Virus record (IMG/VR): IMGVR_UViG_2698536590_000004
Location: 1-33,618 of that record
Length of the DNA: 33,618 nucleotides
Strand: one strand, 5' to 3'
Source of the DNA: a virus
Lineage: Duplodnaviria > Heunggongvirae > Uroviricota > Caudoviricetes
Below the pieces are notes generated by a model. It ran no database searches. It was not told the DNA's origin and saw nothing but the letters and a program-made list of their open reading frames with translations. The position numbers and the translations under genes were made by a program. Below are positions 13,413-33,618 of this stretch, one piece after another; position 1 is the stretch's first letter, and each line of letters opens with the position of its first letter.

Positions 13413-13484
13413 CCTGGCATTCTGGTTTACAATTCGCACGCCAGCCTGAACAACTGGCACCTGCTGCGCCAGCAGAGAAAACAG

Positions 13485-13763: not shown

Positions 13764-13764
13764 C

Positions 13765-14820: not shown

Positions 14821-15198
14821 ATGACTGAACGCATAGAATTTGTTTTGCCTTACCCGCCGACGGTGAATACCTACTGGCGACGTCGTGGCAGCACATATTT
14901 TGTATCAAAAGCCGGTGAGCGTTATCGCCGTGATGTGGCGCTTATTGTTCGCCAGCAGCGACTGAAATTAAACCTGTCCGGAAGGCTGGCAATAAAAATT
15001 ATTGCAGAGCCACCGGATAAGCGCCGCCGCGACCTGGACAATATCCTGAAGGCACCACTGGATGCGCTGACGCATGCCGGACTACTTATAGACGACGAGC
15101 AGTTTGATGAAATCAATATTGTGCGCGGACTGCCTGTTCCTGGTGGGCGGTTGGGCGTGAAGATTTACGAAATTACAGGTGATAACGATGGTGCGTGA
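14821..15198 (+). CDS. rusA: Holliday junction resolvase RusA
   Basis: 125-aa ORF; [28 protein letters not shown] matches the RusA catalytic region (RRRDLDN). Confidence 0.9.
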
Positions 15199-15574
15199 TA
15201 TTCAGCAGGTTATGGAGCGGTGGGGAGCATGGGCTGCGAACAATCACGAAGATGTGTCATGGGCGTCAATCGCTGCTGGTTTTAAAGGATTAATCCCGCC
15301 GAAAGTGAAATCACGCCCTCAGTGTTCTGATGATGATGCAATGATAATTTGTGGCTGTATGGCCCGGTTGAACAAGAAAAATCAGGATTTGCACGATTTG
15401 TTGGTGGATTATTACGTAGGTGGAATGACTTTTATGGGGTTGGCACGAAAGCATGGGTGTTCGGATACCTGTATTGGCAAGCGCCTGCAGAAAGCGGAAG
15501 GGGTTATTGATGGCATGTTGATGATGCTTGATATCCGACTGGAGATGGACAGATACGTAGAACGAATCATGTAG
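15188..15574 (+). CDS. Late-gene antiterminator Q (lambdoid Q family)
   Basis: ATG at 15188 with AGGTGA RBS, overlapping the rusA stop; [31 protein letters not shown]...[16 protein letters not shown] resembles Q of 82/21-type phages; followed by promoter and terminator. Confidence 0.85.
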
Positions 15575-15578
15575 GAGC

Positions 15579-15608
15579 TTGACCAGACACATTGTCCGGG
15601 GCTATATT
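15579..15608 (+). promoter_or_regulatory. Candidate late promoter PR' (sigma70 -35/-10)
   Basis: TTGACC (15579-15584), 18-bp spacer, TATATT (about 15603-15608), immediately after the Q stop; small hairpins follow (qut-like region). Confidence 0.55.
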
Positions 15609-15668
15609 CCTCACGCGCCAGCAAAATCTGGCGTCGGGATTGGCGTCCCGGATGAAAAAGGCGACAAC

Positions 15669-15690
15669 AGACGCGCCAGCGTCTTTTTTA
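15669..15690 (+). terminator. Intrinsic terminator tR'-like (target of Q antitermination)
   Basis: AGACGC-gcca-GCGTCT stem-loop followed by TTTTTT, about 60 nt after the candidate PR'. Confidence 0.6.
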
Positions 15691-15847
15691 TTGTCGTTTG
15701 CACTGTCACATCTCAATGGTGGGCTGTGTGGGGGCGGAGCGATCCGCGCCGGTTCCTTTTTCCCGGTTACGCCAACCCTGCACAGTTCACCACCATACTG
15801 ATTGGCGTCAGCAGTGGTGATGATTCACATAGAAAAAGGATCATCCT

Positions 15848-16336
15848 ATGGCTATTCAAATCTCAGTTGAAACTCTTTCCCCGATCACCCATAACCAAAT
15901 CCCTGTCATTACTACCGAGCTTTTGGCACAACTTTATGGCACCGAAACTAATAACATCAAAGTGAACTATACACGCAATGCCGAGCGTTTTGTTTGTGGG
16001 AAACACTACTTCAAATTGGAAGGGGCTGAGTTGCGGGAATTTAAGAACAAGGTTACTCAAAGTAACTTAGTTGCACCGCGTACAAAGCACCTCATCCTCT
16101 GGACAGAACGCGGAGCAGCCCGTCACACCAAAATGCTGGAAACCGATCAGGCGTGGGAAGTGTTCGAAAAACTGGAAGACTGTTATTTCAGCCAAAAACA
16201 ACCACCAGCAGCACAAAACACCCCAACCCAAAATGATGGATGCGCATTACTGATCCACTTCGATAAACACGGTCAGGTCGACTTCACGGAAAAACTACCC
16301 GCCGATGCGATGGTATGCACTCTGGAACGGTTTTAA
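15848..16336 (+). CDS. ORF6N/KilA-N-type domain protein (antirepressor-like)
   Basis: 162-aa ORF; N-terminal LLAQLYGTETNNIKVNYTRNAERFVCGKHYFKLEGAELREFK fits the ORF6N DNA-binding domain as I recall it. Confidence 0.65.
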   Translation: MAIQISVETLSPITHNQIPVITTELLAQLYGTETNNIKVNYTRNAERFVCGKHYFKLEGAELREFKNKVTQSNLVAPRTKHLILWTERGAARHTKMLETDQAWEVFEKLEDCYFSQKQPPAAQNTPTQNDGCALLIHFDKHGQVDFTEKLPADAMVCTLERF

Positions 16337-16414
16337 AAATTTTCCCCGAACGCTTTACGATCGTAAAAAGTTGAATATCCTGTTAAGAGTGGTTACTACG
16401 CCAAACAGCTTAAA

Positions 16415-16438
16415 CCCGCCACTGAGCGGGTTTTTTAT
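16415..16438 (+). terminator. Intrinsic terminator after the ORF6N gene
   Basis: ACCCGC-cactga-GCGGGT hairpin followed by TTTTTT. Confidence 0.55.
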
Positions 16439-16558
16439 GCCTGAAAAACGGTACAGGACGTTAAACGCGCTGGTGGTTGCTAATACTGGTCTTTCGGCTT
16501 GTATTTTTGTAAATCGATATATACTTATCTTGTGACCAGTAATGTCAGGGCAATTGAT

Positions 16559-17302
16559 ATGAATGAAGCTTGTTCTGTTGTTTTTGTTCATTCCCCGTTT
16601 GTTGTGCTCTTTGAAGGAAAAGAGCTCTCTCTGGAAAGTGGTAGTGCACTTCTTGTCAGGGGGGGAGCTGGATCGTTATTGCCCTTTTCGGAATGTTTTC
16701 GGCGAATAAGTCTCAGTGAATCGACAATTATCCGTTACCTGTTGTGTGGAGACGAAAAACAGGATGTAGTTTTAGTCCGGCAAATACCACGATATCTTTG
16801 CGTGAGTTTTCCCAAGGCAGAATTGATGGGCATCCTGATTGATTATCTTTGTGAGGAAAAGATTCATACGGACAATTTAGCGGAAATGCTTTCCTTTTCG
16901 TGTCTGGCGTTTTTCTCATCAGAGAAAATGTTTTCGTCGTTTCTGACCGCGTGTATTGGCAATATTAGTGACAGGCTTAGTGCATTGTTTCGTACGGACA
17001 TTGCAGCAAACTGGACTCTGAGAGATGTGTCTTCGCGGTTATGTATCAGTGAAAGTTTGTTAAAAAAAAGACTGAAAGAAGAAGGCACCTGTTTCAGTGA
17101 GTTGTTGCTTACAGAGAGAATGAGAATGGCAGCAATGCTGTTGAATCAATCTCGTTGCGCCATCAACAGAATCGCTGCTCAGTGTGGCTATAATTTTACA
17201 TCTTATTTTATCAGCGTATTCAGGAGTTATTTTGGTGTTACACCGGCAGGTTACAGGATGGCTGCATTCAATGAGATGAGTTTAAGTGTTACTCAAGAAT
17301 AA
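16559..17302 (+). CDS. AraC-family transcriptional regulator (AppY/EnvY-like moron)
   Basis: 247 aa from ATG 16559; C-terminal double-HTH region (LRDVSSRLCISESLLKKRLKEEGTCFSELLL...IAAQCGYNFTSYFISVFRSYFGVTPAGY); AT-rich; flanked by terminators. Confidence 0.85.
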   Translation: MNEACSVVFVHSPFVVLFEGKELSLESGSALLVRGGAGSLLPFSECFRRISLSESTIIRYLLCGDEKQDVVLVRQIPRYLCVSFPKAELMGILIDYLCEEKIHTDNLAEMLSFSCLAFFSSEKMFSSFLTACIGNISDRLSALFRTDIAANWTLRDVSSRLCISESLLKKRLKEEGTCFSELLLTERMRMAAMLLNQSRCAINRIAAQCGYNFTSYFISVFRSYFGVTPAGYRMAAFNEMSLSVTQE

Positions 17303-17327
17303 TTGAATTTTGCACTCATTGAAAACA

Positions 17328-17351
17328 GGCTCGCTGCGGCGGGCCTTTTTT
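17328..17351 (+). terminator. Intrinsic terminator after the AraC-family gene
   Basis: GGCTCGC-tgcg-GCGGGCC stem (one G-U pair) followed by TTTTTT. Confidence 0.55.
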
Positions 17352-17441
17352 ATATCCGCGCCACGTCCGGCGCACATCACATCAGATAACACCACACAAA
17401 AGGTATCTGCGGGTGCCTTTGACGGGGTGTTGTTTTTTTAC

Positions 17442-17463
17442 GGGCCGACAGTGGCCCTTTTTT
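17442..17463 (+). terminator. Second hairpin/terminator upstream of the lysis cassette
   Basis: GGGCC-gacagt-GGCCC followed by TTTTTT, just before the AGGAGA RBS of the holin-like gene. Confidence 0.45.
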
Positions 17464-17481
17464 ATTTACAGGAGAAAAAGT

Positions 17482-17874
17482 ATGTCTGAACCCTTATCCG
17501 GTTCCGGCACGGCTGCGGCGCTCGGCGGGGCGACGGTATTCGGGCTGTTTACCGGAACGGATTTCGGGATTGTGTTTGGCGCATTTGCCGGGGCGCTGTT
17601 TGTGGCCACAATGCCGCAGGCACTATCTGCCTGGCGTGTGGCAGCGCATTTTCTGGTGTCGTTTATCGTTGGCGTGCTGGGTGCGCATGTGCTGTCAGCC
17701 TGGATTGCATCAAAAACAGGTTATGACGGTACATCGGCGGATGCTCTGTGTGCGGTGCTGGTGGCGGTGGTGTCGGTGAAGATTCTCTCGTTCATCCACC
17801 AGCAGGATATTGCATCGCTGGTGTCCGGCCTGTTCTCCCGCCTGCGGGGTGGAGGAGGCGGCAATGTTAAGTAA
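17482..17874 (+). CDS. Holin-like membrane protein (three predicted TM helices)
   Basis: 130 aa from ATG 17482 (AGGAGA RBS); Gly/Ala-rich hydrophobic helices; first gene of the cluster ending in an endolysin; stop overlaps the next start. Confidence 0.55.
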   Translation: MSEPLSGSGTAAALGGATVFGLFTGTDFGIVFGAFAGALFVATMPQALSAWRVAAHFLVSFIVGVLGAHVLSAWIASKTGYDGTSADALCAVLVAVVSVKILSFIHQQDIASLVSGLFSRLRGGGGGNVK

Positions 17875-18142
17875 CCTTCCCGGATTGCTGAATGTGGCGT
17901 TATGCACGGTTATCGTGCTGACGCTCTTTTTTTATCGTCGTCGTGATTCCAGACATAAACCGCTGATGTCATGGCTGGCCTGGTTGCTGATGCTGCTGTA
18001 TGCCTTTGCGCCCCTCAGCTATCTGTGTGGTCGCCCGTTAGCAACGGGCTGGCTGGAAGTGTTTTTTAACCTGCTGTTCTGCGTGCTGGTGGTTCGTGCT
18101 CGTGGGAACGTTTCAAAAATCTTTGTATTACGAAGGCGCTGA
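17864..18142 (+). CDS. Small membrane protein of the lysis cassette (holin/antiholin-like)
   Basis: 92 aa from ATG 17864 with GGAGGAGG RBS; three hydrophobic segments; immediately precedes the endolysin start. Confidence 0.5.
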   Translation: MLSNLPGLLNVALCTVIVLTLFFYRRRDSRHKPLMSWLAWLLMLLYAFAPLSYLCGRPLATGWLEVFFNLLFCVLVVRARGNVSKIFVLRRR

Positions 18143-18143
18143 G

Positions 18144-18689
18144 ATGAAGTCGAAAGATGAAATTTTTGATGCTGTTCTTGGCAAAGAGGGCGGCTACGTC
18201 AACCACCCTGATGATAAAGGTGGTCCGACTAAATGGGGCATTACTGGAAAAGTTGCCCGTGCACACGGTTATCAGGGGGATATTCGTGACCTGACGCGTG
18301 GGCAGGCCCTCGAAATTCTTGAAGCGGACTACTGGTACGGGCCACGTTTTCACAAGGTTGCGAGCCTGTCTCCGGAGATCGCTGCTGAATTGTGTGATAC
18401 CGGCGTAAACATGGGGCCGTCAGTGGCATCCAGAATGCTTCAGCGCTGGCTTAATGTATTTAACCAGAAAGGAGAGTTGTATCCGGACATTGATGCAGAT
18501 GGTTGTATCGGCCCACGTACCATTAATGCGTTACGCGCCTATTTGTCAAAACGTGGCAGGGATGGTGAGTTGGTGATTCTGACAGCGCTAAACTGTACGC
18601 AGGGAGATCGCTACCTTGAACTGGCAGAAAAACGTGAGGCTAATGAATCGTTCGTGTATGGCTGGATGAAAGAGCGCGTGGTGGTGTAG
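18144..18689 (+). CDS. Endolysin, glycoside hydrolase family 108 N-terminal domain with C-terminal peptidoglycan-binding domain
   Basis: 181 aa from ATG 18144; FDAVLGKEGGYVNHPDDKGGPTKWGIT matches the GH108 lysozyme signature as I recall it; C-terminal half reads as a peptidoglycan-binding domain (PG_binding_3-type). Confidence 0.8.
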   Translation: MKSKDEIFDAVLGKEGGYVNHPDDKGGPTKWGITGKVARAHGYQGDIRDLTRGQALEILEADYWYGPRFHKVASLSPEIAAELCDTGVNMGPSVASRMLQRWLNVFNQKGELYPDIDADGCIGPRTINALRAYLSKRGRDGELVILTALNCTQGDRYLELAEKREANESFVYGWMKERVVV

Positions 18690-18765
18690 TTGGCATTAAT
18701 GAGGCCAGTAAATCCAACCTGCGGTTAGCTTGTTAGTAAGCGGCTCACCAGAACCGTATTGATAT

Positions 18766-20337
18766 TTACTGAGAGCTCAGATCAACTTTCCAGGGCAACA
18801 GATCGCGTACCCGGTTTGCCGGCCAGTCCTGGATATGTTCAATGACGTAGCGCAGCCATTTTTCTGGCTCCACATTGTTCAGACGGCATGTGCCGATCAG
18901 CGAGTACAACACCGCCGCATGTTCGCCACCGCTGTCGGAACCTGCGAACAGCCAGTTTTTCCGGCCCACGGCCACACCCCGTAAGGCGTTCTCTGCGATG
19001 TTGTTGTCGATTTCCACCCAGCCATTACTGCAGTACACGTTCAGGGCCTCCCACTGTTTCAGCAGGTATGCGAACGCTTTTGCCGTATCCGAGTGACGCG
19101 ACAGTGTTTTCATCTGAGTCTGTATCCAGTCATACAGTGACTGCATCAGTGGCGCAGCTCTGGCTTTTCTTGCCGCCAGACGCTGTTCTGCTGAACATCC
19201 CCGGACTTCTGCCTCGATGGCATACAGTTCACCGATACGCTGCAGGGCTTCCGTGGTGATATCGGTTGGAGCTCTTGCATGCACATCGTGGATTTTTCTC
19301 CGGGCATGGGCCATACACGCGGCTTCCGTTATTCTGCCGGATTCGTATAACGCCCGGTAGCCACCGTAAGCATCGGCCTGAAGCACTCCGCTGTAACCGG
19401 CCAGGTGATTTTGTGGATGGATGCCTTTCCGGTCCGGGCTGTACGCGAACCAGACCGCCGCAGGCATCTGTGAACCGGCGTTACGGTCATCACGGACGTA
19501 GACCCACAGCCGGGCTGTCCGGGTTTTACCGCTGCCCGGCTCCTGGACCGGGACGGGGATATCATCGGCATGGACTTTACCGGGCATCAGCACATACTGG
19601 CGCAGGACGTCATACAGTGGCTCCAGCAGTTCAGCAACGGCACCAGTCCAGCGCCCCAGCGTGGCACGACTCAGCTCCACTCCCTGACGACGGTATATTT
19701 CTGACTGGCGGTATAACGGCAGATGGTCTGCATATTTCCCGGTGACAACATGGGCCAGAAGCCCCGCTCCGGCATAGCTGCGTACAATGGGTTTTGAAGG
19801 CACCGGCGCCTGCACGATATGGTCACAACGGCAACAGGCCAGTTTCGGACGTTGTGTTTCGATAACCTTAAAGGCGCTGCTGATAAGCTCCAGTTGCTCT
19901 GACACATCACATCCCAGAGAACTGAGTTCGCCACCACAGGCAGGACAGCATTCCTCTTCCGGCCGGATAACCCGGGTTTCTCGGGGAAGTGAGGCCGGTA
20001 ACGGTTTACGGGCTGAAGACTGGCGCAGTGCAGATGGCAGTGCCGGGTCATATTGCTCACCCAGCGTTTCCGCCATTTCTTCCTGAAGTGCGCTGATTCG
20101 CTCCTGTGCTTCCTGTATCTGTCGTTCGGTTTTTGCGCGAAGTTTTTCTGAGCTTTTACCGAACTGCATGCGCTGCAGTTTTGCAACCAGCGCCTTCAGC
20201 CGGTTGATTTCAGAAGCATAAGCCGCCAACCTCTGTGAGAGCAGGCGGTTGTATTCGGCCATCTGGCGGATGGTGTCCTGTTGCGTCTGCAACAGTGCCC
20301 GCAGGCGGGCATTCTCATGAGCAAGTGAGGTGTCCAT
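18766..20337 (-). CDS. IS66-family transposase (TnpC/Orf3)
   Basis: 523-aa ORF with coiled-coil N-terminus, Cys motifs ([14 protein letters not shown]) and a conserved catalytic core typical of IS66 transposases. Confidence 0.85.
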
Positions 20338-20356
20338 ATCCTCACTTTACAACGGG

Positions 20357-20704
20357 TTATATACGGATTCCAGCGCGTTCCGTTCGTTTCGGGTGCTTCC
20401 AGTCGATGCCCTCGAGAAGCATGGACAACTGAGCCGGAGTAAGGTGAACCTTTCCATCGCGGGTGACCGGCCAGACGAAGCGGCCCCGCTCCAGGCGTTT
20501 GGTGAAGAGGCACAGTCCGTCACTGTCAGCCCACAGCACTTTTATCTGGTCACCCCGGCGTCCGCGGAAGATAAACAGGTGTCCGGAGAACGGGTCATCC
20601 TTCAGGACGTTCTGAACTTTTGATGCCAGGCCGTTAAAGCCATTTCGCATGTCGGTGATACCGGCAACCAGCCAGATACGCGAACCGGCAGGGAGAGATA
20701 TCAT
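20357..20704 (-). CDS. IS66-family accessory protein TnpB (Orf2)
   Basis: 115-aa ORF (MISLPAGSRIWLVAGITDMRNGFNGLASKVQ...) typical of IS66 Orf2; immediately upstream of tnpC. Confidence 0.8.
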   Translation of the reverse strand: MISLPAGSRIWLVAGITDMRNGFNGLASKVQNVLKDDPFSGHLFIFRGRRGDQIKVLWADSDGLCLFTKRLERGRFVWPVTRDGKVHLTPAQLSMLLEGIDWKHPKRTERAGIRI

Positions 20705-21354
20705 CAGTGGCTGCTCCCTTTCATTTCGCGGATAAGTGTCTGTAATAACGCCGGTGTCAGTTCACCTTTCAGCCTGAGAGTTCCGGCCGGCAGAACCAGC
20801 TCGCAGCACAGACTGTCTGGCAGTGTATTTATCTGTTCAGGTATCTGCACTGGTGCCGGGATTTTATTATCCGGCTCCGGCGTTAACGTCACGGGAAGTA
20901 GCGATGTTTCATGTTCGCCGGGCGGCTGCAGGCCGCCGTTACGCCAGAGATGCCGCCAGTTAAAGAGCAGGTTATCGTTGATTCCGTTCTCGCGAGCTAT
21001 TTGTGCGACACAGGCACCGGGTAAAAGAGTCTGCTGAACAAGTCTCCATTTAAACTCCTGTGAAAATCGGTTCCGGCGGTTTTTCTCTGTTTTCACAGTC
21101 TGAGTTACTGTCGGGGCTGAAGGGTATCGCCCCGGGAAAAGAGCCCGGGCCAGTTGCATGCAGGAATATTCACCGGAAAGAGGCCAGTCAGCGAATATCT
21201 GGTGAAATCGCCTCACCAGAGAAAAAATGGCGGTTTTGCTGACACCGGTCTGCACAGAAATGCGCGGGTACGACAGTGACTCGTCAAATCTCAGTTGTAG
21301 CACACGCAGGATCAATTCCGGATTATCTGCCAGTACCGCCTTTCGTGCATTCAT
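20704..21354 (-). CDS. IS66-family accessory protein TnpA (Orf1); start uncertain
   Basis: 216-aa ORF; C-terminal part (RFSQEFKWRLVQQTLLPGACVAQIARENGINDNLLFNWRHLW) matches IS66 Orf1; stop overlaps tnpB start. Confidence 0.7.
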   Translation of the reverse strand: MNARKAVLADNPELILRVLQLRFDESLSYPRISVQTGVSKTAIFSLVRRFHQIFADWPLSGEYSCMQLARALFPGRYPSAPTVTQTVKTEKNRRNRFSQEFKWRLVQQTLLPGACVAQIARENGINDNLLFNWRHLWRNGGLQPPGEHETSLLPVTLTPEPDNKIPAPVQIPEQINTLPDSLCCELVLPAGTLRLKGELTPALLQTLIREMKGSSH

Positions 21355-21718
21355 CTTAAATGTCCTTTTACTGCGAAAATGGACATTAGTATCGGAAACA
21401 GGAAAGGGAGGCGAAAGACGGTTTAAATGAGACGGTTACGCTTGTTATTAGACTTACCGAACAAGAAAAACGACTGGAGAAAGAGTTCGGTTTTTATACC
21501 AAACAAAGAGGAGAATATGAATCAGTGAGTACAGAGAAAAATCCTCGGCAGATCGTATAAATCTTCTTTTAAAGCCGTCCGTTATGAAAGGAATAGAAAA
21601 GAAAGTAACTGCACGTCTTTATGTGACACGGTCTGCTTTTGCTATTTTTCTTTTGGAGGTTGTTATTTGCGCATCAAGTGCAGATAGAGTTGCCCATCGA
21701 GATGGGCAACTTATGATA

Positions 21719-22012
21719 TTATTGTGAGCAATATACCCGAGCTTCCAGCGGAGTATAAATGCCGAAAGTGATAAAACCGAGCAATCCATTTACGAATGTT
21801 TGCTGGGTTTCAGTCTTAACAACTTTTTCTGCGCCACCACAAATTTTGGCTGCATCGACAGTTTTCTTCTGACCAATTCCAGAAACGAAGAAATGATGAG
21901 TGATGGTTTCCTTCGGTGTTACTGTTGTCGGTTGGTTTTCAACAGTAAACGTCTGTTGAGCACATCCAGAGATAAGCAGGGCCAGCGTGAAAGTGAGTAG
22001 CGTTTTTTTCAT
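21719..22012 (-). CDS. bor: Bor lipoprotein (Bor/Iss family, serum-resistance-associated)
   Basis: 97-aa ORF with lipoprotein signal and lipobox (LLISGC); near-identical over most of its length to lambda Bor as I recall it (ETITHHFFVSGIGQKKTVDAAKICGG...EARVYCSQ). Confidence 0.9.
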   Translation of the reverse strand: MKKTLLTFTLALLISGCAQQTFTVENQPTTVTPKETITHHFFVSGIGQKKTVDAAKICGGAEKVVKTETQQTFVNGLLGFITFGIYTPLEARVYCSQ

Positions 22013-22236
22013 AGTGTTATTCCCGTTGTGTTTTTAAGGTTGTTGAATCGTATTTGTAGAAATTTAAACAAAACCTAAACAATGAGTTGAAATCTCATAT
22101 TTTTAATGTTTATTAAAGTATGCCAGATGTGCTGTATTTTCATTGTATTCCCGGATTAACTATGTCCTCAGTACCGACTGGTAACTCCTGTGTGGGAGTG
22201 CCGGATAGTGAGGGGGATTAAACCGGGCGATATGGT

Positions 22237-22647
22237 TTAGCGTGGAAAAAATTGTGTCGTGTTCTGAATGCTTTCGGTAAACAATAATGAGTTGTCAAAG
22301 GTATAGTAATACCTTTTGTGTTCATGGACATTTGTAACCCATCGGAAAACTCCAGCCTTAGCCAGATTTTCCCTGTATTCATGAAATGTGATTTCTCTTG
22401 ATTTCAACTTATGAGAGTAAGTTTCTATAAGTCGCGTGTCTCTGCGAAATTTAACATTCACAACCTCCTCAAGTCCTTTTATTAACACTGCGTTATCATT
22501 TTTCAATACAACGTGAATATTACCTGTGGCTAAATAGTAAATGTAATGTGAGACATTGTGACGTTTTAGTTCAGAGTAAAATCGGTCACAGTTTAAATCT
22601 TTCCGCACTTGATCAAATATTTCTTTAAAAAGGGCAACCTGAGCCAT
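22237..22647 (-). CDS. DUF1398-family prophage protein (YbcV/YdfO-like)
   Basis: 136-aa AT-rich ORF; position between bor and the terminase genes matches DLP12 borD-ybcV; family assignment from memory. Confidence 0.55.
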
Positions 22648-22809
22648 CAGTATAACCTTGTATATGATATGGGGTGCGTAGTCTGCATGAGAGCTTTTAA
22701 TACTGCAATCTGGTCAGATGTCTTTATCCTGTGTGGATGATAATTGATCTTACCCAGCAATAGTGGACACGCGGCTAAGTGAGTAAACTCTCAGTCAGAG
22801 GTGACTCAC

Positions 22810-23109
22810 ATGACAAAAACAGTATCAACCAGTAAAAAACCCCGTAAACAGCATTCGCCTGAATTTCGCAGTGAAGCCCTGAAGCTTGCTGAACGCATCG
22901 GTGTTACTGCCGCAGCCCGTGAACTCAGCCTGTATGAATCACAGCTCTACAACTGGCGCAGTAAACAGCAAAATCAGCAGACGTCTTCTGAACGTGAACT
23001 GGAGATGTCTACCGAGATTGCACGTCTCAAACGCCAGCTGGCAGAACGGGATGAAGAGCTGGCTATCCTCCAAAAGGCCGCGACATACTTCGCGAAGCGC
23101 CTGAAATGA
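22810..23109 (+). CDS. insE: IS3 transposase OrfA (InsE)
   Basis: [50 protein letters not shown]... is the IS3 OrfA HTH protein; ATG at 22810 (track start 22801). Confidence 0.9.
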
Positions 23110-23972
23110 AGTATGTCTTTATTGAAAAACATCAGGCTGAGTTCAGCATCAAAGCAATGTGCCGCGTGCTCCGGGTGGCCCGCAGCGGCTGGTATACGTG
23201 GTGTCAGCGGCGGACAAGGATAAGCATGCGTCAGCAGTTCCGCCAACACTGCGACAGCGTTGTCCTCGCGGCTTTTACCCGGTCAAAACAGCGTTACGGT
23301 GCCCCACGCCTGACGGATGAACTGCGTGCTCAGGGTTACCCCTTTAACGTAAAAACCGTGGCGGCAAGCCTGCGCCGTCAGGGACTGAGGGCAAAGGCCT
23401 CCCGGAAGTTCAGCCCGGTCAGCTACCGCGCACACGGCCTGCCTGTGTCAGAAAATCTGTTGGAGCAGGATTTTTACGCCAGTGGCCCGAACCAGAAGTG
23501 GGCAGGAGACATCACGTACTTACGTACAGATGAAGGCTGGCTGTATCTGGCAGTGGTCATTGACCTGTGGTCACGTGCCGTTATTGGCTGGTCAATGTCG
23601 CCACGCATGACGGCGCAACTGGCCTGCGATGCCCTGCAGATGGCGCTGTGGCGGCGTAAGAGGCCCCGGAACGTTATCGTTCACACGGACCGTGGAGGCC
23701 AGTACTGTTCAGCAGATTATCAGGCGCAACAGAAACGGCATAATCTGCGTGGAAGTATGAGCGCAAAAGGTTGCTGCTACGATAATGCCTGCGTGGAAAG
23801 CTTCTTTCATTCGCTGAAAGTGGAATGTATCCATGGAGAACACTTTATCAGCCGGGAAATAATGCGGGCAACGGTGTTTAATTATATCGAATGTGATTAC
23901 AATCGGTGGCGGCGGCACAGTTGGTGTGGCGGCCTCAGTCCGGAACAATTTGAAAACCAGAACCTCGCTTAG
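23106..23972 (+). CDS. insF: IS3 transposase OrfB (InsF), DDE integrase-type catalytic domain
   Basis: 288-aa ORF overlapping orfA (ATGA); DDE-type core ([26 protein letters not shown]...HTDRGGQY...); normally expressed as an OrfAB frameshift fusion. Confidence 0.9.
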
Positions 23973-24439
23973 GCCTGTGTCCATATTACGTGGGTAGGAT
24001 CAAATTGTCAGAGATTATGAGGTTTTTTTAACCTATGGAATTACCGGAAGGTGCGAAAATTACAAAGTAAGAAGCGTTATAGAAGTCCTTCATACAGTGA
24101 AGGACTTCTATAATCTTAGAAATAAAAAAACCGGTCATAGGGAGCTACACAGAACCGGTCGGCGAAGATCGCCAATACCACCCATGCATCGATACAACAT
24201 ACTACTGACAATAGCTGCTATTGATGTAAAAGCAATGTTATGCATCGATGAAAATAAAAAACCGGCAGGGGAAATCCATTGAAGATTTGCCGGTGGCAAA
24301 AGTAGCCAATGCTTTTATAACCGTAGTCGCAGAGTTATGAAGTGCAACACCGAATGCTGTCGGTATATGACTGAATGGTGTTTCAATGATGTACATCATT
24401 CCTACTGTAAATGTAATTAATAATAACTCTATTTGTACG

Positions 24440-24640
24440 GGTCCTTCCGGTGGGGTGGTCTGCCACGGGGCGGCAGCGGCGCGGATTTTCGCTATTTATG
24501 AAAATTTTTCGGGAAAAAGCGTGTCGGTACTTCTCGTGTATAACTCATTGTTTTTTCATCAATCACATCCGTAAAAGGTCCGACATGAAAGTGCCCGAAA
24601 AAGACGTTTTTGAGCACTTCCATGTCGGACCCTGCATTTG
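24440..24640 (+). other. cos site region (cosQ-cosN-cosB) upstream of the small terminase gene
   Basis: ACGGGGCGGCAGCGGCGCGGATTTTCGCTATTTATGAAAATTTT closely resembles the lambda cohesive-end region as I recall it (GGGCGGCGACCTCGCGGGTTTTCGCTATTTATGAAAATTTT); 11-bp inverted repeat GGTCCGACATG/CATGTCGGACC (about 24567-24631) lies in the presumed cosB segment. Confidence 0.7.
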
Positions 24641-24655
24641 ATATGGAAATGTTTT

Positions 24656-25204
24656 ATGAAGGTTAATAAAAAGAAGCTCGCGGAAATTTTCAACGTGGAT
24701 CCACGAACGATTGAACGCTGGCAGTCTCAGGGGCTCTCTTGTGTCTCTGGTGGTAGTAAGGGGGTTGAATCTGTATTTGATACCGCCATGGCAATTCAGT
24801 GGTATGCGCAGCGCGAAGCCGATATTGAAAACGAAAAACTCCGCAAAGAGACCGAGGATTTGCGTGCGGCTGCGGAATCAGATTTACAACCCGGCACCAT
24901 TGACTATGAGCGCTACCGACTCACAAAAGCACAGGCTGATGCACAGGAACTGAAAAATGCCCGCGAAGAAGGGCTGGTACTGGAAACGGAATTGTTTACC
25001 TTCATTCTGCAACGTGTGGCACAGGAGATTTCGGGGATACTTGTACGTGTGCCGCTGACATTACAGCGTAAATATCCGGATATTTCACCGTCACACCTTG
25101 ATGTGGTGAAAACTGAAATCGCAAAAGCCTCCAACGTTGCAGCTAAAGCTGGTGAGAACGTAGGCGGGTGGATTGATGATTTCAGACGCACAGAAGGCAG
25201 CTAA
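24656..25204 (+). CDS. nu1: Terminase small subunit (lambda Nu1 homolog)
   Basis: 182 aa from ATG 24656; N-terminal HTH ([25 protein letters not shown]) and central [10 protein letters not shown]...DLQPGTI...[12 protein letters not shown] resemble lambda Nu1; sits directly after cos. Confidence 0.9.
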
Positions 25205-27092
25205 TGCAGCCGGTGCGATAGCAACAGGGCTTGTATCTCTCAATATTCCGGTACCACTGACGACAGTTCAGTGGGCTGATCAGCATTATTATCTGCCAAA
25301 AGAGTCTTCATATACTCCCGGGCAATGGGAAACACTGCCGTTTCAGGTTGCCATCATGAACAGCATGGGGAATGACCGGATCCGCACCGTTAATCTGATT
25401 AAATCGGCGCGTGTTGGTTACACCAAAATGCTGTTGGGGGTGGAGGCTTATTTTATTGAACACAAATCCCGTAACAGCCTGCTTTTTCAGCCGACAGATT
25501 CTGCGGCAGAAGATTTTATGAAATCCCATGTCGAACCAACGATAAGAGACGTTCCTGTATTACTGGAGCTGGCTCCGTGGTTTGGCAGAAAACATCGGGA
25601 CAACACGCTTACCCTGAAACGTTTCTCCTCCGGTGTGGGATTCTGGTGTCTGGGCGGAGCTGCTGCCAAAAACTACCGTGAAAAATCTGTGGATGTGGTC
25701 TGCTATGACGAACTCTCCTCGTTTGAACCGGATGTGGAAAAAGAAGGTTCACCAACTCTGCTTGGCGATAAGCGTATCGAAGGTTCGGTATGGCCTAAAT
25801 CCATACGCGGCTCAACGCCCAAAATTAAAGGTTTTTGCCAGATTGAAAAAGCCGCGAACGAATCTGCACATTTTATGCGGTTTTATGTGCCATGCCCTCA
25901 TTGTGGTGAAGCCCAGTATCTGAAGTTTGGCGATGATGCGACAACCTTTGGCCTGAAATGGGAGAAGGGCAAGCCGGAGACGGTGTATTACCTGTGTGAA
26001 CATAATGGCTGCGCGATCCGTCAGTCGGAACTTGACCAGACCGACGGGCGGTGGATTTGTGACAATACCGGGATGTGGACGCGTGACGGTCTGACATTTT
26101 ACAGCGCCGGTGATGAGGAAATCCCGCCACCGCGCTCAATCTCGTACCACATCTGGACGGCATACAGCCCGTTCACCACCTGGGTACAGATTGTTTATGA
26201 CTGGCTTGATGCACTGAAGGATCCGAATGGCGTCAAGACGTTCATTAACACCACGCTGGGGGAGCCTTATGAAGAGGCTGTGGCAGAAAAACTGAGCTTT
26301 GAGTTATTGCTGGAAAAAGTCTGCCACTATGATGCGCAGGTTCCCCTGCGGGTGGTTTACCTGACCGCAGGGATCGACTCTCAGAAAAACCGTTATGAGA
26401 TTTATGTCTGGGGCTGGGCTCCTGGCGAAGAAGCTTTTCTGATTGACAAGCAGATCATCATGGGGAGACCGGAAGATGAGGACACCCTTAAACGCGTTGA
26501 TGCCGTGATCCGGAAAAAATACCGTCATGCAGATGGCACTGAAATTTCCATTTCCCGCGTCTGCTGGGATACCGGTGGTATTGACCAGGACATTGTGTAT
26601 CAGCGATCCAGAAAACACGGCACTTTTTTTGTGCTCCCCATCAAAGGGGCGTCGGTGTACGGCAAGCCGGTGATCACCATGCCAAAAAAGCGAAACCAGC
26701 GTGGGGTGTTTTTGTGTGAGGTGGGTTCCGATACCGTCAAGGAAATGCTGTATGCGCGTTTTGCCCTGCCGGTGGTATCTGCCAGTGAAGTCGCACCGTA
26801 TACCTTCCGTTTTCCGGATAACCCGGACATTTTTTCTGATGTTGAAGCTAAACAACTCGTGGCAGAAGAGCTGGTTGAAAAAGTTGTGAACGGGCGGGTG
26901 AAACTCCAGTGGGATGCCAGAAAACGGCGTAATGAAGCTCTGGACTGTCTGGTGTATGCCTATGCAGCGCTGCGCATTTCCGTTCAGCGGTGGCAACTGG
27001 ATCTGGATGCACTGGCCCGCGCCAGAAGAGATGAACAGGACGACGATGAAATGACTATTGAAGAAATCGCGGCTGCTCTGAGTGGAGGATAA
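25173..27092 (+). CDS. A: Terminase large subunit (lambda gpA homolog)
   Basis: 639-aa ORF with extensive similarity to lambda gpA as I recall it ([65 protein letters not shown]); start overlaps the Nu1 end. Confidence 0.95.
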
Positions 27093-27305
27093 GTGATGAT
27101 TTATACGCATGAAATGCTATGCGATGCCCGCCGGGCGTTACATGAACTGATGATCGGACGTGCTGTGGTTTCCGTCAGCAAGGACGGGCGTCAGGTTCAG
27201 TATTCGCGGGCGACAATTGGTGAACTGCGTCAGTATATTGAAGAGCTGGAAAGTGCGCTGGGTGTATCCGGACGGCGTCGTGGCCCGGCAGGAGTGGGGC
27301 TGTGA
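27093..27305 (+). CDS. W: Head-tail joining protein W (lambda gpW homolog)
   Basis: 70-aa ORF immediately after A; ARRALHELMIGRAVVSVSKDGRQVQYSRATIGELRQYIEELE...RRRGPAG resembles lambda gpW. Confidence 0.85.
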   Translation: MMIYTHEMLCDARRALHELMIGRAVVSVSKDGRQVQYSRATIGELRQYIEELESALGVSGRRRGPAGVGL

Positions 27306-27898
27306 ACGGGGAACTGGTGGATATTCATGGGCAGCCTTTACGGCAAAGCATGGGATATTCTGGTGGTGGTTCCGGGTTCGGTGGGCAAATGGCAGAATGG
27401 CTGCCTGCACCGGAAAGTGCCGACGTGGCGCTCTTACCTTCCATTCATCTGGGTAACGCCCGCGCGGATGAGCTGGTCCGTAACAACGGTATTGCATCGA
27501 ATGCAGTGGAAATTCATAAGGATCATATTGTCGGGCACATGTTTCGTCTGAGTTACCGTCCCAACTGGCGCTGGCTGGGGATGTCGGAAGCAGATTCACA
27601 TGCTTTTATTGAAGATGTTGAGGCGGCGTGGATGGAATACTGCGATCCGGTGTTTGGTACGATGGATGTGGAAGGGCGTCGTTCGTTTACCGAATTTATT
27701 CGTGAAGGGGTGGGGGTCCATACGTTTAACGGTGAAATTTTTGTCCAGCCCGTATGGGATGCGGAATCCACGTCATTATTCCGGACGAAATTCAAAACCA
27801 TCAGCCCGAAGCGTGTCAGTACACCCGGTTATGGTACCCGAACACGGCACTGGTCGGTGTACAGGTGGACTCGGAGCAGTTCGGCAGCCAGCAGGTGA
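27302..27898 (+). pseudogene. B: Portal protein B, N-terminal fragment only (B'), fused by deletion to the J region
   Basis: Resembles the lambda portal N-terminus (YSGGGSGFGG, LVRNNG, FNGEIFVQ, LFRTKFKTISPKR) for about 175 aa, then runs into J-derived sequence out of frame and stops at 27898; a full portal is about 530 aa. Confidence 0.8.
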
Positions 27899-30600
27899 GT
27901 CGTAATTATCATCTTCGCGGGCGCATTCTGCAGGTGCCGTCGAACTATAACCCGCAGACGCGGCAATACAGCGGTATCTGGGACGGAACGTTTAAACCGG
28001 CATACAGCAACAACATGGCCTGGTGTCTGTGGGATATGCTGACCCATCCGCGCTACGGCATGGGGAAACGTCTTGGTGCGGCGGATGTGGATAAATGGGC
28101 GCTGTATGTCATCGGCCAGTACTGCGACCAGTCAGTGCCGGACGGCTTTGGCGGCACGGAGCCGCGCATCACCTGTAATGCGTACCTGACCACACAGCGT
28201 AAGGCGTGGGATGTGCTCAGCGATTTCTGCTCGGCGATGCGCTGTATGCCGGTATGGAACGGGCAGACGCTGACGTTCGTGCAGGACCGACCGTCGGATA
28301 AGGCGTGGACCTATAACCGCAGTAATGTGGTGATGCCGGATGATGGCGCGCCGTTCCGCTACAGCTTCAGCGCCCTGAAGGACCGCCATAATGCCGTTGA
28401 GGTGAACTGGATTGACCCGAACAACGGCTGGGAGACGGCGACAGAGCTTGTTGAAGATACGCAGGCCATTGCCCGTTACGGTCGTAATGTTACGAAGATG
28501 GATGCCTTTGGCTGTACCAGCCGGGGGCAGGCACACCGCGCCGGGCTGTGGCTGATTAAAACAGAACTGCTGGAAACGCAGACCGTGGATTTCAGCGTCG
28601 GCGCAGAAGGGCTTCGCCATGTACCGGGCGATGTTATTGAAATCTGCGATGATGACTATGCCGGTATCAGCACCGGTGGTCGTGTGCTGGCGGTGAACAG
28701 CCAGACCCGGACGCTGACGCTCGACCGTGAAATCACGCTGCCATCCTCCGGTACCGCGCTGATAAGCCTGGTTGACGGAAGTGGCAATCCGGTCAGCGTG
28801 GAGGTTCAGTCCGTCACCGACGGCGTGAAGGTAAAAGTGAGCCGTGTTCCTGACGGTGTTGCTGAATACAGCGTATGGGGGCTGAAGCTGCCGACGCTGC
28901 GCCAGCGACTGTTCCGCTGCGTGAGTATCCGTGAGAACGACGACGGCACGTATGCCATCACCGCCGTGCAGCATGTGCCGGAAAAAGAGGCCATCGTGGA
29001 TAACGGGGCGCACTTTGACGGCGAACAGAGTGGCACGGTGAATGGTGTCACGCCGCCAGCGGTGCAGCACCTGACCGCAGAAGTCACTGCAGACAGCGGG
29101 GAATATCAGGTGCTGGCGCGATGGGACACACCGAAGGTGGTGAAGGGCGTGAGCTTCCTGCTCCGTCTGACCGTAACAGCGGACGACGGCAGTTAGCGGC
29201 TGGTCAGCACGGCCCGGACGACGGAAACCACATACCGCTTCACGCAACTGGCGCTGGGGAACTACAGGCTGACAGTCCGGGCGGTAAATGCGTGGGGGCA
29301 GCAGGGCGATCCGGCGTCGGTATCGTTCCGGATTGCCGCACCGGCAGCACCGTCGAGGATTGAGCTGACGCCGGGCTATTTTCAGATAACCGCCACGCCG
29401 CATCTTGCCGTTTATGACCCGACGGTACAGTTTGAGTTCTGGTTCTCGGAAAAGCAGATTGCGGATATCAGACAGGTTGAAACCAGCGCGCGTTATCTTG
29501 GTACGGCGCTGTACTGGATAGCCGCCAGTATCAATATCAAACCGGGCCATGATTATTACTTTTATATCCGCAGTGTGAACACCGTTGGCAAATCGGCATT
29601 CGTGGAGTCCGTCGGTCGGGCGAGCGATGATGCGGAAGGTTACCTGGATTTTTTCAAAGGCAAGATAACCGAATCCCATCTCGGCAAGGAGCTGCTGGAA
29701 AAAGTCGATCTGACGGAGGATAACGCCAGCAGACTGGAGGAGTTTTCGAAAGAGTGGAAGGACGCCAACGATAAGTGGAATGCCATGTGGGCTGTCAAAA
29801 TTGAGCAGACCAAAGACGGCAAACATTATGTCGCGGGTATTGGCCTCAGCATGGAGGACACGGAGGAAGGCAAACTGAGCCAGTTTCTGGTTGCCGCCAA
29901 TCGTATCGCGTTTATTGACCCGGCAAACGGGAATGAAACGCCGATGTTTGTGGCGCAGGGCAACCAGATATTCATGAACGACGTGTTCCTGAAGCGCCTG
30001 ACGGCCCCCACCATTACCAGCGGCGGCAATCCTCCGGCCTTTTCCCTGACACCGGACGGAAAGCTGACCGCTAAAAATGCGGATATCAGTGGCAGTGTGA
30101 ATGCGAACTCCGGGACGCTCAGTAATGTGACGATAGCTGAAAACTGTACGATAAACGGTACGCTGAGGGCGGAAAAAATCGTCGGGGACATTGTAAAGGC
30201 GGCGAGCGCGGCTTTTCCGCGCCAGCGTGAAAGCAGTGTGGACTGGCCGTCAGGTACCCGTACTGTCACCGTGACCGATGACCATCCTTTTGATCGCCAG
30301 ATAGTGGTGCTTCCGCTGACGTTTCGCGGAAGTAAGCGTACTGTCAGCGGCAGGACAACGTATTCGATGTGTTATCTGAAAGTACTGATGAACGGTGCGG
30401 TGATTTATGATGGCGCGGCGAACGAGGCGGTACAGGTGTTCTCCCGTATTGTTGACATGCCAGCGGGTCGGGGAAACGTGATCCTGACGTTCACGCTTAC
30501 GTCCACACGGCATTCGGCAGATATTCCGCCGGATACGTTTGCCAGCGATGTGCAGGTTATGGTGATTAAGAAACAGGCGCTGGGCATCAGCGTGGTCTGA
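27754..30600 (+). pseudogene. J: Tail tip/host-specificity protein J, C-terminal ~930 codons only ('J), with an in-frame TAG at 29194-29196
   Basis: J-like sequence begins near 27815 (LWYPNTALVGVQVDSEQFG...) and runs to 30600 in one frame, interrupted by a single TAG; the N-terminal part of J and all genes between B and J are absent. Confidence 0.8.
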
Positions 30601-30661
30601 GTGTGTTACAGAGGTTCGTCCGGGAACGGGCGTTTTATTATAAAACAGTGAGAGGTGAACG

Positions 30662-31282
30662 ATGCGTAATGTGTGTATTGCCGTTGCTGTCTTTGCCGCA
30701 CTTGCGGTGACAGTCACTCCGGCCCGTGCGGAAGGTGGACATGGTACGTTTACGGTGGGCTATTTTCAGGTGAAACCGGGTACATTGCCGTCGTTGTCGG
30801 GCGGGGATACCGGTGTGAGTCATCTGAAAGGGATTAACGTGAAGTACCGTTATGAGCTGACGGACAGTGTGGGGGTGATGGCTTCCCTGGGGTTCGCCGC
30901 GTCGAAAAAGAGCAGCACAGTGATGACCGGGGAGGATACGTTTCACTATGAGAGCCTGCGTGGACGTTATGTGAGCGTGATGGCCGGACCGGTTTTACAA
31001 ATCAGTAAGCAGGTCAGTGCGTACGCCATGGCCGGAGTGGCTCACAGTCGGTGGTCCGGCAGTACAAGGGATTACCGTAAGACGGAAATCACTCCCGGGT
31101 ATATGAAAGAGACGACCACCGCCAGGGACGAAAGTGCAATGCGGCATACCTCAGTGGCGTGGAGTGCAGGTATACAGATTAATCCGGCAGCGTCCGTCGT
31201 TGTTGATATTGCTTATGAAGGCTCCGGCAGTGGCGACTGGCGTACTGACGGATTCATCGTTGGGGTCGGTTATAAATTCTGA
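30662..31282 (+). CDS. lom: Lom outer-membrane protein (Ail/Lom family)
   Basis: 206-aa ORF with signal peptide and beta-barrel-like alternation; C-terminal DGFIVGVGYKF; position after J as in lambda. Confidence 0.9.
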   Translation: MRNVCIAVAVFAALAVTVTPARAEGGHGTFTVGYFQVKPGTLPSLSGGDTGVSHLKGINVKYRYELTDSVGVMASLGFAASKKSSTVMTGEDTFHYESLRGRYVSVMAGPVLQISKQVSAYAMAGVAHSRWSGSTRDYRKTEITPGYMKETTTARDESAMRHTSVAWSAGIQINPAASVVVDIAYEGSGSGDWRTDGFIVGVGYKF

Positions 31283-31340
31283 TTAGCCAGGTAACACAGT
31301 GTTATGACAGCCCGCCGGAACCGGTGGGCTTTTTTGTGGG

Positions 31341-33037
31341 GTGAATATGGCAGTAAAGATTTCAGGAGTCCTGAAAGACGGCACAGGAAAACCGGTACAG
31401 AACTGCACCATTCAGCTGAAAGCCAGACGTAACAGCACCACGGTGGTGGTGAACACGGTGGGCTCAGAGAATCCGGATGAAGCCGGGCGTTACAGCATGG
31501 ATGTGGAGTACGGTCAGTACAGTGTCATCCTGCAGGTTGACGGTTTTCCACCATCGCACGCCGGGACCATCACCGTGTATGAAGATTCACAACCGGGGAC
31601 GCTGAATGATTTTCTCTGTGCCATGACGGAGGATGATGCCCGGCCGGAGGTGCTGCGTCGTCTTGAACTGATGGTGGAAGAGGTGGCGCGTAACGCGTCC
31701 GTGGTGGCACAGAGTACGGCAGACGCGAAGAAATCAGCCGGCGATGCCAGTGCATCAGCTGCTCAGGTCGCGGCCCTTGTGACTGATGCAACTGACTCAG
31801 CACGCGCCGCCAGCACGTCCGCCGGACAGGCTGCATCGTCAGCTCAGGAAGCGTCCTCCGGCGCAGAAGCGGCATCAGCAAAGGCCACTGAAGCGGAAAA
31901 AAGTGCCGCAGCCGCAGAGTCCTCAAAAAACGCGGCGGCCACCAGTGCCGGTGCGGCGAAAACGTCAGAAACGAATGCTGCAGCGTCACAACAATCAGCC
32001 GCCACGTCTGCCTCCACCGCGGCCACGAAAGCGTCAGAGGCCGCCACTTCAGCACGAGATGCGGTGGCCTCAAAAGAGGCAGCAAAATCATCAGAAACGA
32101 ACGCATCATCAAGTGCCGGTCGTGCAGCTTCCTCGGCAACGGCGGCAGAAAATTCTGCCAGGGCGGCAAAAACGTCCGAGACGAATGCCAGGTCATCTGA
32201 AACAGCAGCGGAACGGAGCGCCTCTGCCGCGGCAGACGCAAAAACAGCGGCGGCGGGGAGTGCGTCAACGGCATCCACGAAGGCGACAGAGGCTGCGGGA
32301 AGTGCGGTATCAGCATCGCAGAGCAAAAGTGCGGCAGAAGCGGCGGCAATACGTGCAGAAAATTCGGCAAAACGTGCAGAAGATATAGCTTCAGCTGTCG
32401 CGCTTGAGGATGCGGACACAACGAGAAAGGGGATAGTGCAGCTCAGCAGTGCAACCAACAGCACGTCTGAAACGCTTGCTGCAACGCCAAAGGCGGTTAA
32501 GGTGGTAATGGATGAAACGAACAGAAAAGCCCCACTGGACAGTCCGGCACTGACCGGAACGCCAACAGCACCAACCGCGCTCAGGGGAACAAACAATACC
32601 CAGATTACGGCACCAAATCGACGAATAACACGGGGGCTCATGCTCACAGTCTGAGCGGTTCAACAGGGGCCGCGGGTGCTCATGCCCACACAAGTGGTTT
32701 AAGGATGAACAGTTCTGGCTGGAGTCAGTATGGAACAGCAACCATTACAGGAAGTTTATCCACAGTTAAAGGAACCAACACACAGGGTATTGCTTATTTA
32801 TCGAAAACGGACAGTCAGGGCAGCCACAGTCACTCATTGTCCGGTACAGCCGTGAGTGCCGGTGCACATGCGCATACAGTTGGTATTGGTGCGCACCAGC
32901 ATCCGGTTGTTATCGGTGCTCATGCCCATTCTTTCAGTATTGGTTCACACGGACACACCATCACCGTTAACGCTGCGGGTAACGCGGAAAACACAGTCAA
33001 AAACATTGCATTTAACTATATTGTGAGGCTTGCATAA
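31341..33037 (+). pseudogene. stf: Side tail fibre gene stf, disrupted by a frame change/internal deletion
   Basis: N-terminal ORF 31341..32654 (GTG start; Ala/Ser-rich repeats; ...[19 protein letters not shown] then out-of-frame tail). The conserved C-terminus ([14 protein letters not shown]...[32 protein letters not shown]...[11 protein letters not shown]) is in another frame ending at 33037. Confidence 0.7.
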
Positions 33038-33618
33038 TGGCATTCAGAATGAGTGAACAACCACGGACCATAAAAATTTATAATCTGCTGGCCGGAACTA
33101 ATGAATTTATTGGTGAAGGTGACGCATATATTCCGCCTCATACCGGTCTGCCTGCAAACAGTACCGATATTGCACCGCCAGATATTCCGGCTGGCTTTGT
33201 GGCTGTTTTCAACAGTGATGAGGCATCGTGGCATCTCGTTGAAGACCATCGGGGTAAAACCGTCTATGACGTGGCTTCCGGCGACGCGTTATTTATTTCT
33301 GAACTCGGTCCGTTACCGGAAAATTTTACCTGGTTATCGCCGGGAGGGGAATATCAGAAGTGGAACGGCACAGCCTGGGTGAAGGATACGGAAGCAGAAA
33401 AACTGTTCCGGATCCGGGAGGCGGAAGAAACAAAAAAAAGCCTGATGCAGGTAGCCAGTGAGCATATTGCGCCGCTTCAGGATGCTGCAGATCTGGAAAT
33501 TGCAACGGAGGAAGAAACCTCGTTGCTGGAAGCCTGGAAGAAGTATCGGGTATTGCTGAACCGTGTTGATACATCAACTGCACCTGATATTGAGTGGCCG
33601 ACTTCACCTGCAGAGTAA
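33037..33618 (+). CDS. tfa: Tail fibre assembly protein Tfa
   Basis: 193-aa ORF beginning [41 protein letters not shown], closely resembling lambda Tfa as I recall it; start overlaps the stf stop (TAATG); ends with TAA at the window edge. Confidence 0.9.

Follow-up and report, generated by a model that had tools for sequence, protein, structure and literature searches.

The 33.6-kb window (the whole stretch of DNA analysed, 33,618 nucleotides in length) is a lambdoid prophage in which the beginning of a portal gene is joined directly to the distal part of the tail-tip gene J. The best explanation of this arrangement, with a probability of roughly 0.88, is a single illegitimate (homology-independent) deletion of 13,463 bp in a lambdoid prophage, which joined portal codon 179 to J codon 212 at the tetranucleotide TACC. 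Virion-formation genes are absent or disrupted in comparison with an intact relative, the prophage of E. coli RM8082. Judged from its sequence, the element is a cryptic prophage, predicted to be unable to make heads or tails, and its portal and J fragments are pseudogenes. The following features have been identified around the junction:

27302..27838, plus strand: 5' remnant of the portal gene, codons 1-179 of 523 (Pfam Phage_portal_2; RM8082 portal; lambda gpB)
27835..27838, plus strand: deletion junction, 4-bp TACC (three-way base alignment; P=0.02 for at least 4 bp)
27839..27898, plus strand: out-of-frame J-derived tail of the portal ORF, 19 codons and a stop (ORF translation and frame arithmetic)
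27835..30600, plus strand: 3' remnant of the tail-tip gene J, codons 212-1132 (lambda J, 99.4%; RM8082 J, 99.87%; Pfam)

The match of the ORF at 27302-27898 (198 aa) to the Pfam family Phage_portal_2 (E=6.6e-30) is confined to profile positions 2-142 of 354. Over residues 1-179 the ORF is identical to the portal protein (523 aa) of the RM8082 prophage, and residues 18-184 of lambda gpB share 56% identity with it. These matches bear out the portal origin of the frame, as put forward in the original prediction; the gene belongs to the lambda portal family but is not lambda's own B, and shows about 80% DNA identity to that of phage 21. On the other side of the junction, the window from 27832/27835 onwards matches lambda J from nt 16135 at 99.4% DNA identity, the match running through lom, and from 27835 it aligns to the J gene of RM8082 without gaps at 99.87%. 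The J remnant contains the Pfam domains Phage-tail_3, Ig_J, Phage_Tail_Tip and Ig_GpJ_C. An antisense ORF inside J (28132-29826, 564 aa) was considered as a gene and rejected; it has no independent support and is a by-product of a GC-rich coding region.

The position of the break was determined through a three-way base alignment of the window with the RM8082 portal and the RM8082 J, in which TACC at window 27835-27838 is common to both parental sites. The portal parent reads ...GGTTATGG TACC GGCGATCG... and the J parent ...AACAGGGC TACC CGAACACGG..., while the window reads ...GGTTATGG TACC CGAACACGG..., so that the switch of parent occurs exactly at TACC. In the RM8082 region (L001; NZ_CP043825.1, 1,255,993-1,300,630) the two copies of the repeat lie at 25814-25817 and 39277-39280, and a single copy is left in the window; the base-level alignment contains no filler DNA or inserted bases, and 13,463 bp of RM8082 are absent at this point. 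Of the 523 codons of the portal gene, 1-179 are present if counting begins at the GTG at 27302, a start that overlaps the stop codon of W as the lambda B start does; counted from the ATG chosen by PGAP, the break lies 163 codons into the gene. The contribution of J consists of codons 212-1132 of 1132, with the same numbering in lambda (J of RM8082 starts at L001 38644, and L001 39277 is the first base of codon 212). A fusion near 27815-27835, about 175 codons into the portal gene and in the middle of J, had been predicted; the place was right, with the exact break at the edge of that range, the codon count needs correction to 179 or 163 depending on the start, and the J breakpoint falls in the first fifth of the gene instead of its middle.

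The predicted change of frame was also recovered. The portal gene, starting at 27302, is read in frame 2, whereas J, with its codon 212 at 27835, is in frame 1; as a result, the portal ORF continues across the junction with 19 out-of-frame codons derived from J and reaches its stop at 27898, ending in ...GYGT/RTRHWSVYRWTRSSSAASR*. The J frame is open upstream to an ATG at 27754, giving a misleading 480-aa ORF (27754-29196).

The presence of a direct repeat at both parental sites, retained once in a filler-free product, characterizes a short-homology illegitimate deletion, and the suspected role of microhomology is thereby supported. Among 200,000 random junctions simulated on L001, a microhomology of at least 4 bases arose with P=0.02, a value which is suggestive but not overwhelming for so short a repeat. 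Portal sequence directly abuts J sequence, and the junction bears neither a transposable element nor a long repeat, nor a site for site-specific recombination; the IS genes closest to it are those at 18766-21354 and 22801-23972. An engineered deletion was considered on account of the KpnI site GGTACC at the junction and rejected, as GGTACC occurs only in the portal parent and the J parent has GCTACC.

In the proposed deletion, one TACC copy and everything between the two copies would have been lost, probably while the prophage was integrated. The joining would be RecA-independent and directed by short homology; two candidate routes are slippage of misaligned strands in the course of replication and the end-joining of a resected double-strand break. 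A length of 13.5 kb is large for simple replication slippage.

The intact arrangement was identified through a search of complete E. coli genomes. RM8082 gave the best portal match (100%) of the 17 genomes matching at >=99%, each of which has a full-length portal gene, and also the best J match (100%), lying about 13.47 kb beyond the portal. A portal-to-J spacing of about 13.46 kb was likewise found, from match coordinates, in BCE049, NS-NP030 and KS-NP019, so the search for an intact ancestor recommended in the original prediction yielded RM8082 and, with the same spacing, at least three further E. coli genomes. The RM8082 region is a complete lambdoid prophage adjoining potB, with the genes from portal through J in lambda order and both flanks of the junction in one prophage. 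Its annotation comprises, for packaging and head, the small and large terminase subunits, a head-tail joining protein, portal, S49 peptidase, decoration protein and major capsid protein; onward, FI, a head-tail joining protein, Z/U/V-type tail proteins, G, T and the tape measure; and, in the last part, an M-type protein, L, K (C40 peptidase), I, J, Lom, the tail fibre and the tail fibre assembly protein.

The window was compared with L001 by blastn, and absences were judged against RM8082 as the intact relative. Window 24034-27838 corresponds to L001 22011-25817, and window 27835-31817 to L001 39277-43259 (99.87%, gapless). From cos to the portal (24460-27838; 3,379 bp) a single base is mismatched, and the 3,983 bp of the J side contain five mismatches. 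Since both flanks are found in RM8082 at about 100% identity, separated by 13,463 bp, the portal-to-J deletion is upheld. The missing segment holds 15 whole annotated genes, from the protease to the tail assembly protein I; lost are the rest of the portal gene, the C/Nu3-type (S49) protease, D, E, FI, FII, Z, U, V, G, T, H, M, L, K, I and J codons 1-211. T, which in lambda is made by frameshift from G, is counted among the 15; at the edges, the partial losses are the 3' two-thirds of the portal gene and the 211 codons at the 5' end of J. The lost-gene list, taken from the RM8082 annotation, agrees with the expectation that all head genes, most tail genes and the 5' part of J would be missing.

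Identity to RM8082 extends to both ends of the window, being 99.1% over positions 1-8857 (int to ydaT) and 99.6-99.9% from J to tfa. The intervening part at 8857-24034 is only 78-85% identical or unrelated to RM8082 and represents a different mosaic; for this reason, RM8082 is not the direct ancestor of the analysed prophage.

The packaging genes preceding the junction have been retained as follows:

24468..24479, plus strand: cosN-like site GGGCGGCAGCGG, followed by a lambda-like cos flank (CGCGGATTTTCGCTATTTATGAAAATTTTT), collinear with the lambda left end (GGGCGGCGACCTCGCGGGTTTTCGCTATTTATGAAAATTTTCC)
24656..25204, plus strand: small terminase subunit, Nu1 family, intact (Pfam Phage_Nu1, E=2.6e-83; 182/182 aa identical to RM8082)
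25176..27092, plus strand: large terminase subunit, gpA family, intact (Pfam GpA_ATPase and GpA_nuclease; 638/638 aa identical to RM8082)
27096..27305, plus strand: gpW head-tail joining protein, intact (Pfam gpW, E=4.3e-25; 69/69 aa identical to RM8082)

The 12-mer GGGCGGCAGCGG and its surroundings are identical in the intact RM8082 prophage. The identity of this site, Nu1, gpA and W to RM8082 agrees with the earlier view that cos and terminase were spared and supports their being intact, which would hold insofar as the RM8082 phage is itself functional.

The deletion is accompanied by further lesions. A private GAG-to-TAG change at codon 665 (29194-29196) has put an amber codon into the J remnant and splits it into two ORFs of the same frame; the portal frame had been said to continue as J, and the continuation is indeed J-derived but does not form one ORF. 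With lambda as the outgroup, three of the five differences between the J remnant and RM8082 are private to the window, all of them G-to-T changes, and are too few to prove relaxed selection. The genes beyond J and the transposase genes upstream of cos are arranged as follows:

18766-21354: IS66-family transposase genes, 3' of the endolysin gene
22801-23972: IS3-family transposase genes, just upstream of cos
30662..31282, plus strand: lom, intact (206/206 aa identical to RM8082; 205/206 to lambda Lom)
31341..33037, plus strand: side tail fibre gene stf, inactivated (private 634-bp deletion with its junction at 32603-32606, GATT, and a frameshift)
33037..33618, plus strand: tail fibre assembly gene tfa, running to the window end (193/193 aa identical to RM8082)

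The stf deletion measures 634 bp relative to both lambda and RM8082, and the intact 1045-bp span is kept in all top-matching complete E. coli genomes. As the second private deletion of the same prophage, and likewise located at a 4-bp repeat (GATT), it fits the same process. The IS elements are given by the coordinates of their transposase genes only, because a search for terminal inverted repeats gave no convincing pair. The amber codon, the stf deletion and the two IS insertions probably represent the continued decay of genes no longer needed; the portal-J deletion is likely to have come first and to have been followed by the nonsense mutation in a useless J remnant. The predicted inability to form particles is thus over-determined, as these lesions would block assembly several times over.

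The assignment of the window as a lambdoid prophage follows from its ORF map, its Pfam matches (including a Peptidase_S24 and HTH repressor, RusA, holins, a GH108 endolysin and Bor) and the comparison of its left arm with RM8082. The gene order is that of lambda: integrase/excisionase, a CI-type repressor, a Q region, lysis genes, and cos-Nu1-A-W-B ... J-lom-stf-tfa. Integrase/excisionase and a RecE-type exonuclease are encoded on the minus strand at the left end, where the RM8082 stretch matching at 99.1% is annotated integrase/excisionase. The repressor is located as follows:

6946-7584: CI-type repressor

It is followed by a YdaT-family gene and a Qin-type replisome-organizer/DUF977/AbiH/hokD module, and further to the right by DUF968, RusA, an AraC-family regulator, two holins and the GH108 endolysin. 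Between the endolysin and cos lie the IS66-family element, bor, DUF1398 and the IS3-family element; after cos come Nu1, gpA, gpW, the portal fragment, the J fragment, lom, stf and tfa.

The junction was absent from the phage records and the complete E. coli genomes searched, as well as from species-representative genomes, IMG/VR viral contigs and JGI metagenome contigs. Exact-protein look-ups returned no record for the fused portal ORF and J-remnant ORFs, which were entered in four versions, for the truncated Stf, or for the distal J-remnant ORF. The portal side gave no match by megablast against the phage collection; more distant blastn aligned it to Nu1-A-W-portal of phage 21 (about 80%) and to Gifsy-1 (73%), both matches ending at window 27816-27827. 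A natural short gene of functional phages, named in the original prediction as an observation that would speak against a deletion, is not indicated, as none of the phage records, complete E. coli genomes, viral and metagenome contigs or species-representative genomes of those collections contains the junction. From these searches the junction appears to be strain-private, and the deletion is known from one assembly, with no second genome carrying it among those searched.

The same arrangement might have been produced by illegitimate recombination between two co-resident lambdoid prophages, one supplying cos-Nu1-A-W-portal and the other J-lom-stf-tfa, with the chromosome between them lost or rearranged. 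The window is clearly mosaic, and in JNEC-KY180 a 99.9%-identical portal and a 100%-identical J lie about 50 kb apart, a spacing which means that the portal and J modules are not always found in one prophage. This origin is nevertheless very unlikely: the two ends of a single RM8082 prophage recur at the two ends of the window (99.1% and 99.6-99.9%), the lambda-like interval of 13.46 kb between portal and J is found in four genomes, and the additional large rearrangement required brings no explanatory gain, making it less parsimonious than an internal deletion. We consider it highly improbable that two contigs were misjoined at portal and J through an assembly or sequencing artefact. Such an error would agree with the lack of the junction in every other record of the collections searched and with the empty protein look-ups, but the two sides share only 4 bp, whereas assemblers join on overlaps of tens of bases; there is no repeat at the junction to cause a collapse, and the window is free of N. 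The J amber codon and the second deletion in stf are, moreover, what would be expected of genes useless for some time.

The least probable alternative is that the remnant has been kept for a function: it would be a helper-dependent unit that brings cos and terminase of its own and is packaged by a lambdoid phage resident in the same cell, its truncated portal or J fragment would act against superinfecting phages, or both. The identity of cos, Nu1, A and W to the intact relative speaks for it, as does the packaging and transfer, via other prophages, of O157 Sakai prophages devoid of head or tail genes (PMC2669165). Selection is left without the support of conservation, however, as the junction is private to one genome, and the near-identity (one mismatch in 3.4 kb) reflects a deletion too recent to reveal purifying selection. 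The fragments are out of frame and contain a nonsense codon, and the late region upstream of cos is interrupted by IS elements. The distance from int to tfa is only about 33 kb, whereas lambda packaging needs roughly 38 kb or more. It is scarcely probable, too, that the remnant is not inert, being packaged or supplying terminase during the growth of related phages, or poisoning the portal rings of superinfecting relatives by means of its 198-aa portal fragment; if this were true, the deletion product would be an accidental anti-phage or helper-dependent element. A phage satellite (a cos-type PICI or similar) was also considered. Satellites are understood here as conserved, recurrent, compact elements, lacking structural genes by design and equipped with dedicated hijacking genes. 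The analysed element is about 33 kb long and not a compact one of about 10-15 kb, its pseudogene ends are truncated and out of frame with an amber codon, and its junction was found nowhere else in the collections searched; the satellite assignment was rejected.

The single internal deletion is an ordinary illegitimate event yielding a cryptic prophage and belongs to the standard picture of E. coli prophage decay; the junction is new, the kind of event already known. The ORFs at 27302-27898, 27754-29196 and 29575-30600 should be annotated as portal and J pseudogene fragments and the prophage as defective. The case offers a cleanly resolved example of decay, in which the ancestor state, two private deletions at 4-bp repeats, a nonsense codon and IS insertions are seen in one element. 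It adds one data point on E. coli prophage inactivation and raises no new question.

The RM8082 prophage, with its close copies in BCE049, NS-NP030 and KS-NP019, shares with the window the left arm int-xis-exo...ydaT (99.1%), cos, Nu1, A, W, the first 179 portal codons, the 3' part of J, lom, stf and tfa. Unlike the window, it keeps the segment from portal codon 180 to J codon 211 (13,463 bp), its stf gene has not lost the 634 bp, and its J is free of the amber codon. The two prophages also differ in their replication, Q and lysis modules, where RM8082 carries no IS elements. Lambda (J02459) has the gene order Nu1-A-W-B...J-lom-stf-tfa in common with the window and is 99.4-99.6% identical in DNA over J codons 212-1132, lom, stf and tfa, whereas the packaging and portal genes reach only 64-67% DNA identity (56% for the portal protein) and are nearer to those of phage 21 (about 80%) and Gifsy-1 (73%). 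The last five bases of the cosN-like 12-mer also differ from lambda. The stf gene of the window has the CCCC run of Ur-lambda and not the PaPa frameshift.

Comparable truncations are known from the K-12 cryptic prophages DLP12, Qin, Rac and e14. Most lambdoid prophages of O157:H7 Sakai have kept the terminase while being defective in portal, head or tail and carrying IS insertions. In Sp3, Sp4, Sp6, Sp9, Sp14 and Sp15 the terminase is mostly intact, genes for portal, head or tail have been deleted or disrupted, and IS elements have inserted; some defective Sakai prophages can nonetheless undergo excision, packaging and transfer when other prophages assist (Asadulghani et al. 2009, PMC2669165). 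They are different phages at different sites, whereas the window has one clean deletion of the whole head-and-tail block. The Qin-type prophage of E. coli FG92-1 is alike in that a 192-bp portal fragment adjoins an N-terminally truncated tape-measure gene, a junction left by a packaging-to-tail deletion of the same kind. Its breakpoints and gene families are not those of the window, and the large terminase of FG92-1 is truncated as well, whereas cos and terminase of the window are untouched. The Qin-type replisome-organizer/DUF977/AbiH/hokD module is also present in the window, at 99.3% identity.

The two arms of the window are at least 99% identical to the intact related prophage of E. coli RM8082. 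The segment between them, at positions 8857-24034, carries the replication genes, the Q region and the lysis genes, and forms a different mosaic, either 78-85% identical to RM8082 or unrelated to it. The combination of RM8082-like arms with this different middle indicates that RM8082-type and Qin-type phages had recombined to give the direct ancestor. The features located within the middle segment are as follows.

Features of the mosaic middle segment (coordinates of the IS elements are those of the transposase genes)
10196-12597, minus strand: low-GC island (35-40%) encoding an AbiH-family protein and a 465-aa partner
16499-17302: gene of a 267-aa AraC-family regulator, part of the late-regulatory region, with the ORF6N-domain gene on one side and the holins on the other
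18766-21354, minus strand: IS66-family element (tnpA/tnpB/tnpC), directly after the GH108 endolysin gene
21719-22012: bor, between the IS66-family and IS3-family elements
22237-22647: DUF1398 gene, between the same two elements
22801-23972: IS3-family element (orfA/orfB), immediately upstream of cos

The AbiH-family abortive-infection protein of the low-GC island comprises 306 residues, and a Pfam search gave no match for its 465-aa partner. The island belongs to the Qin-type module (replisome organizer, DUF977 and hokD), with 99.3% identity to many E. coli genomes. The AraC-family protein is possibly a host regulator borne by the prophage.

A loss of the same kind as the portal-to-J deletion of the window has occurred independently in the Qin-type prophage of E. 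coli FG92-1 (positions 26424-28992 of its locus L003), where the deletion runs from packaging to tail genes. Three incomplete genes are annotated next to one another there: the large terminase, truncated; the portal, as a 192-bp fragment; and the tape measure, truncated at the N-terminus.

The remnant of the tail-tip gene J carries a further lesion; codon 665 is an amber triplet (TAG, 29194-29196), in contrast to GAG in both lambda and RM8082. Because of this private stop codon, the open reading frames at 27754-29196 and 29575-30600 represent a single interrupted frame and not two genes. All three private substitutions in the remnant (29194, 29608 and 29709) are G-to-T transversions on the plus strand, causing the nonsense change, A803S and E836D, respectively. 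This pattern, although three events are a small sample, may hint at oxidative damage, a mutator background or sequencing error. Antisense to J, on the minus strand, lies a 564-aa open reading frame (28132-29826), for which length is the sole support and which probably arises as a side effect of the GC-rich coding strand.

Compared with either lambda or RM8082, the side tail fibre gene stf (31341-33037) lacks 634 bp; the junction of this second deletion (32603-32606) lies at the 4-bp repeat GATT, and the frame is shifted. The intact span is kept in all best-matching complete E. coli genomes. At about 32553-32560 the window has the run AAAAGCCCCACTGG, compared with AAAAGCCCACTGG in lambda PaPa, and thus reads the unshifted, Ur-lambda-type frame at the classic PaPa frameshift site.

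A cosN-like 12-mer, GGGCGGCAGCGG, is located at 24468-24479 within lambda-like flanking cos sequence; its last five bases differ from those of lambda (GGGCGGCGACCT). The presence of the identical 12-mer in RM8082 shows that this putative cohesive-end sequence is a feature of the phage group.
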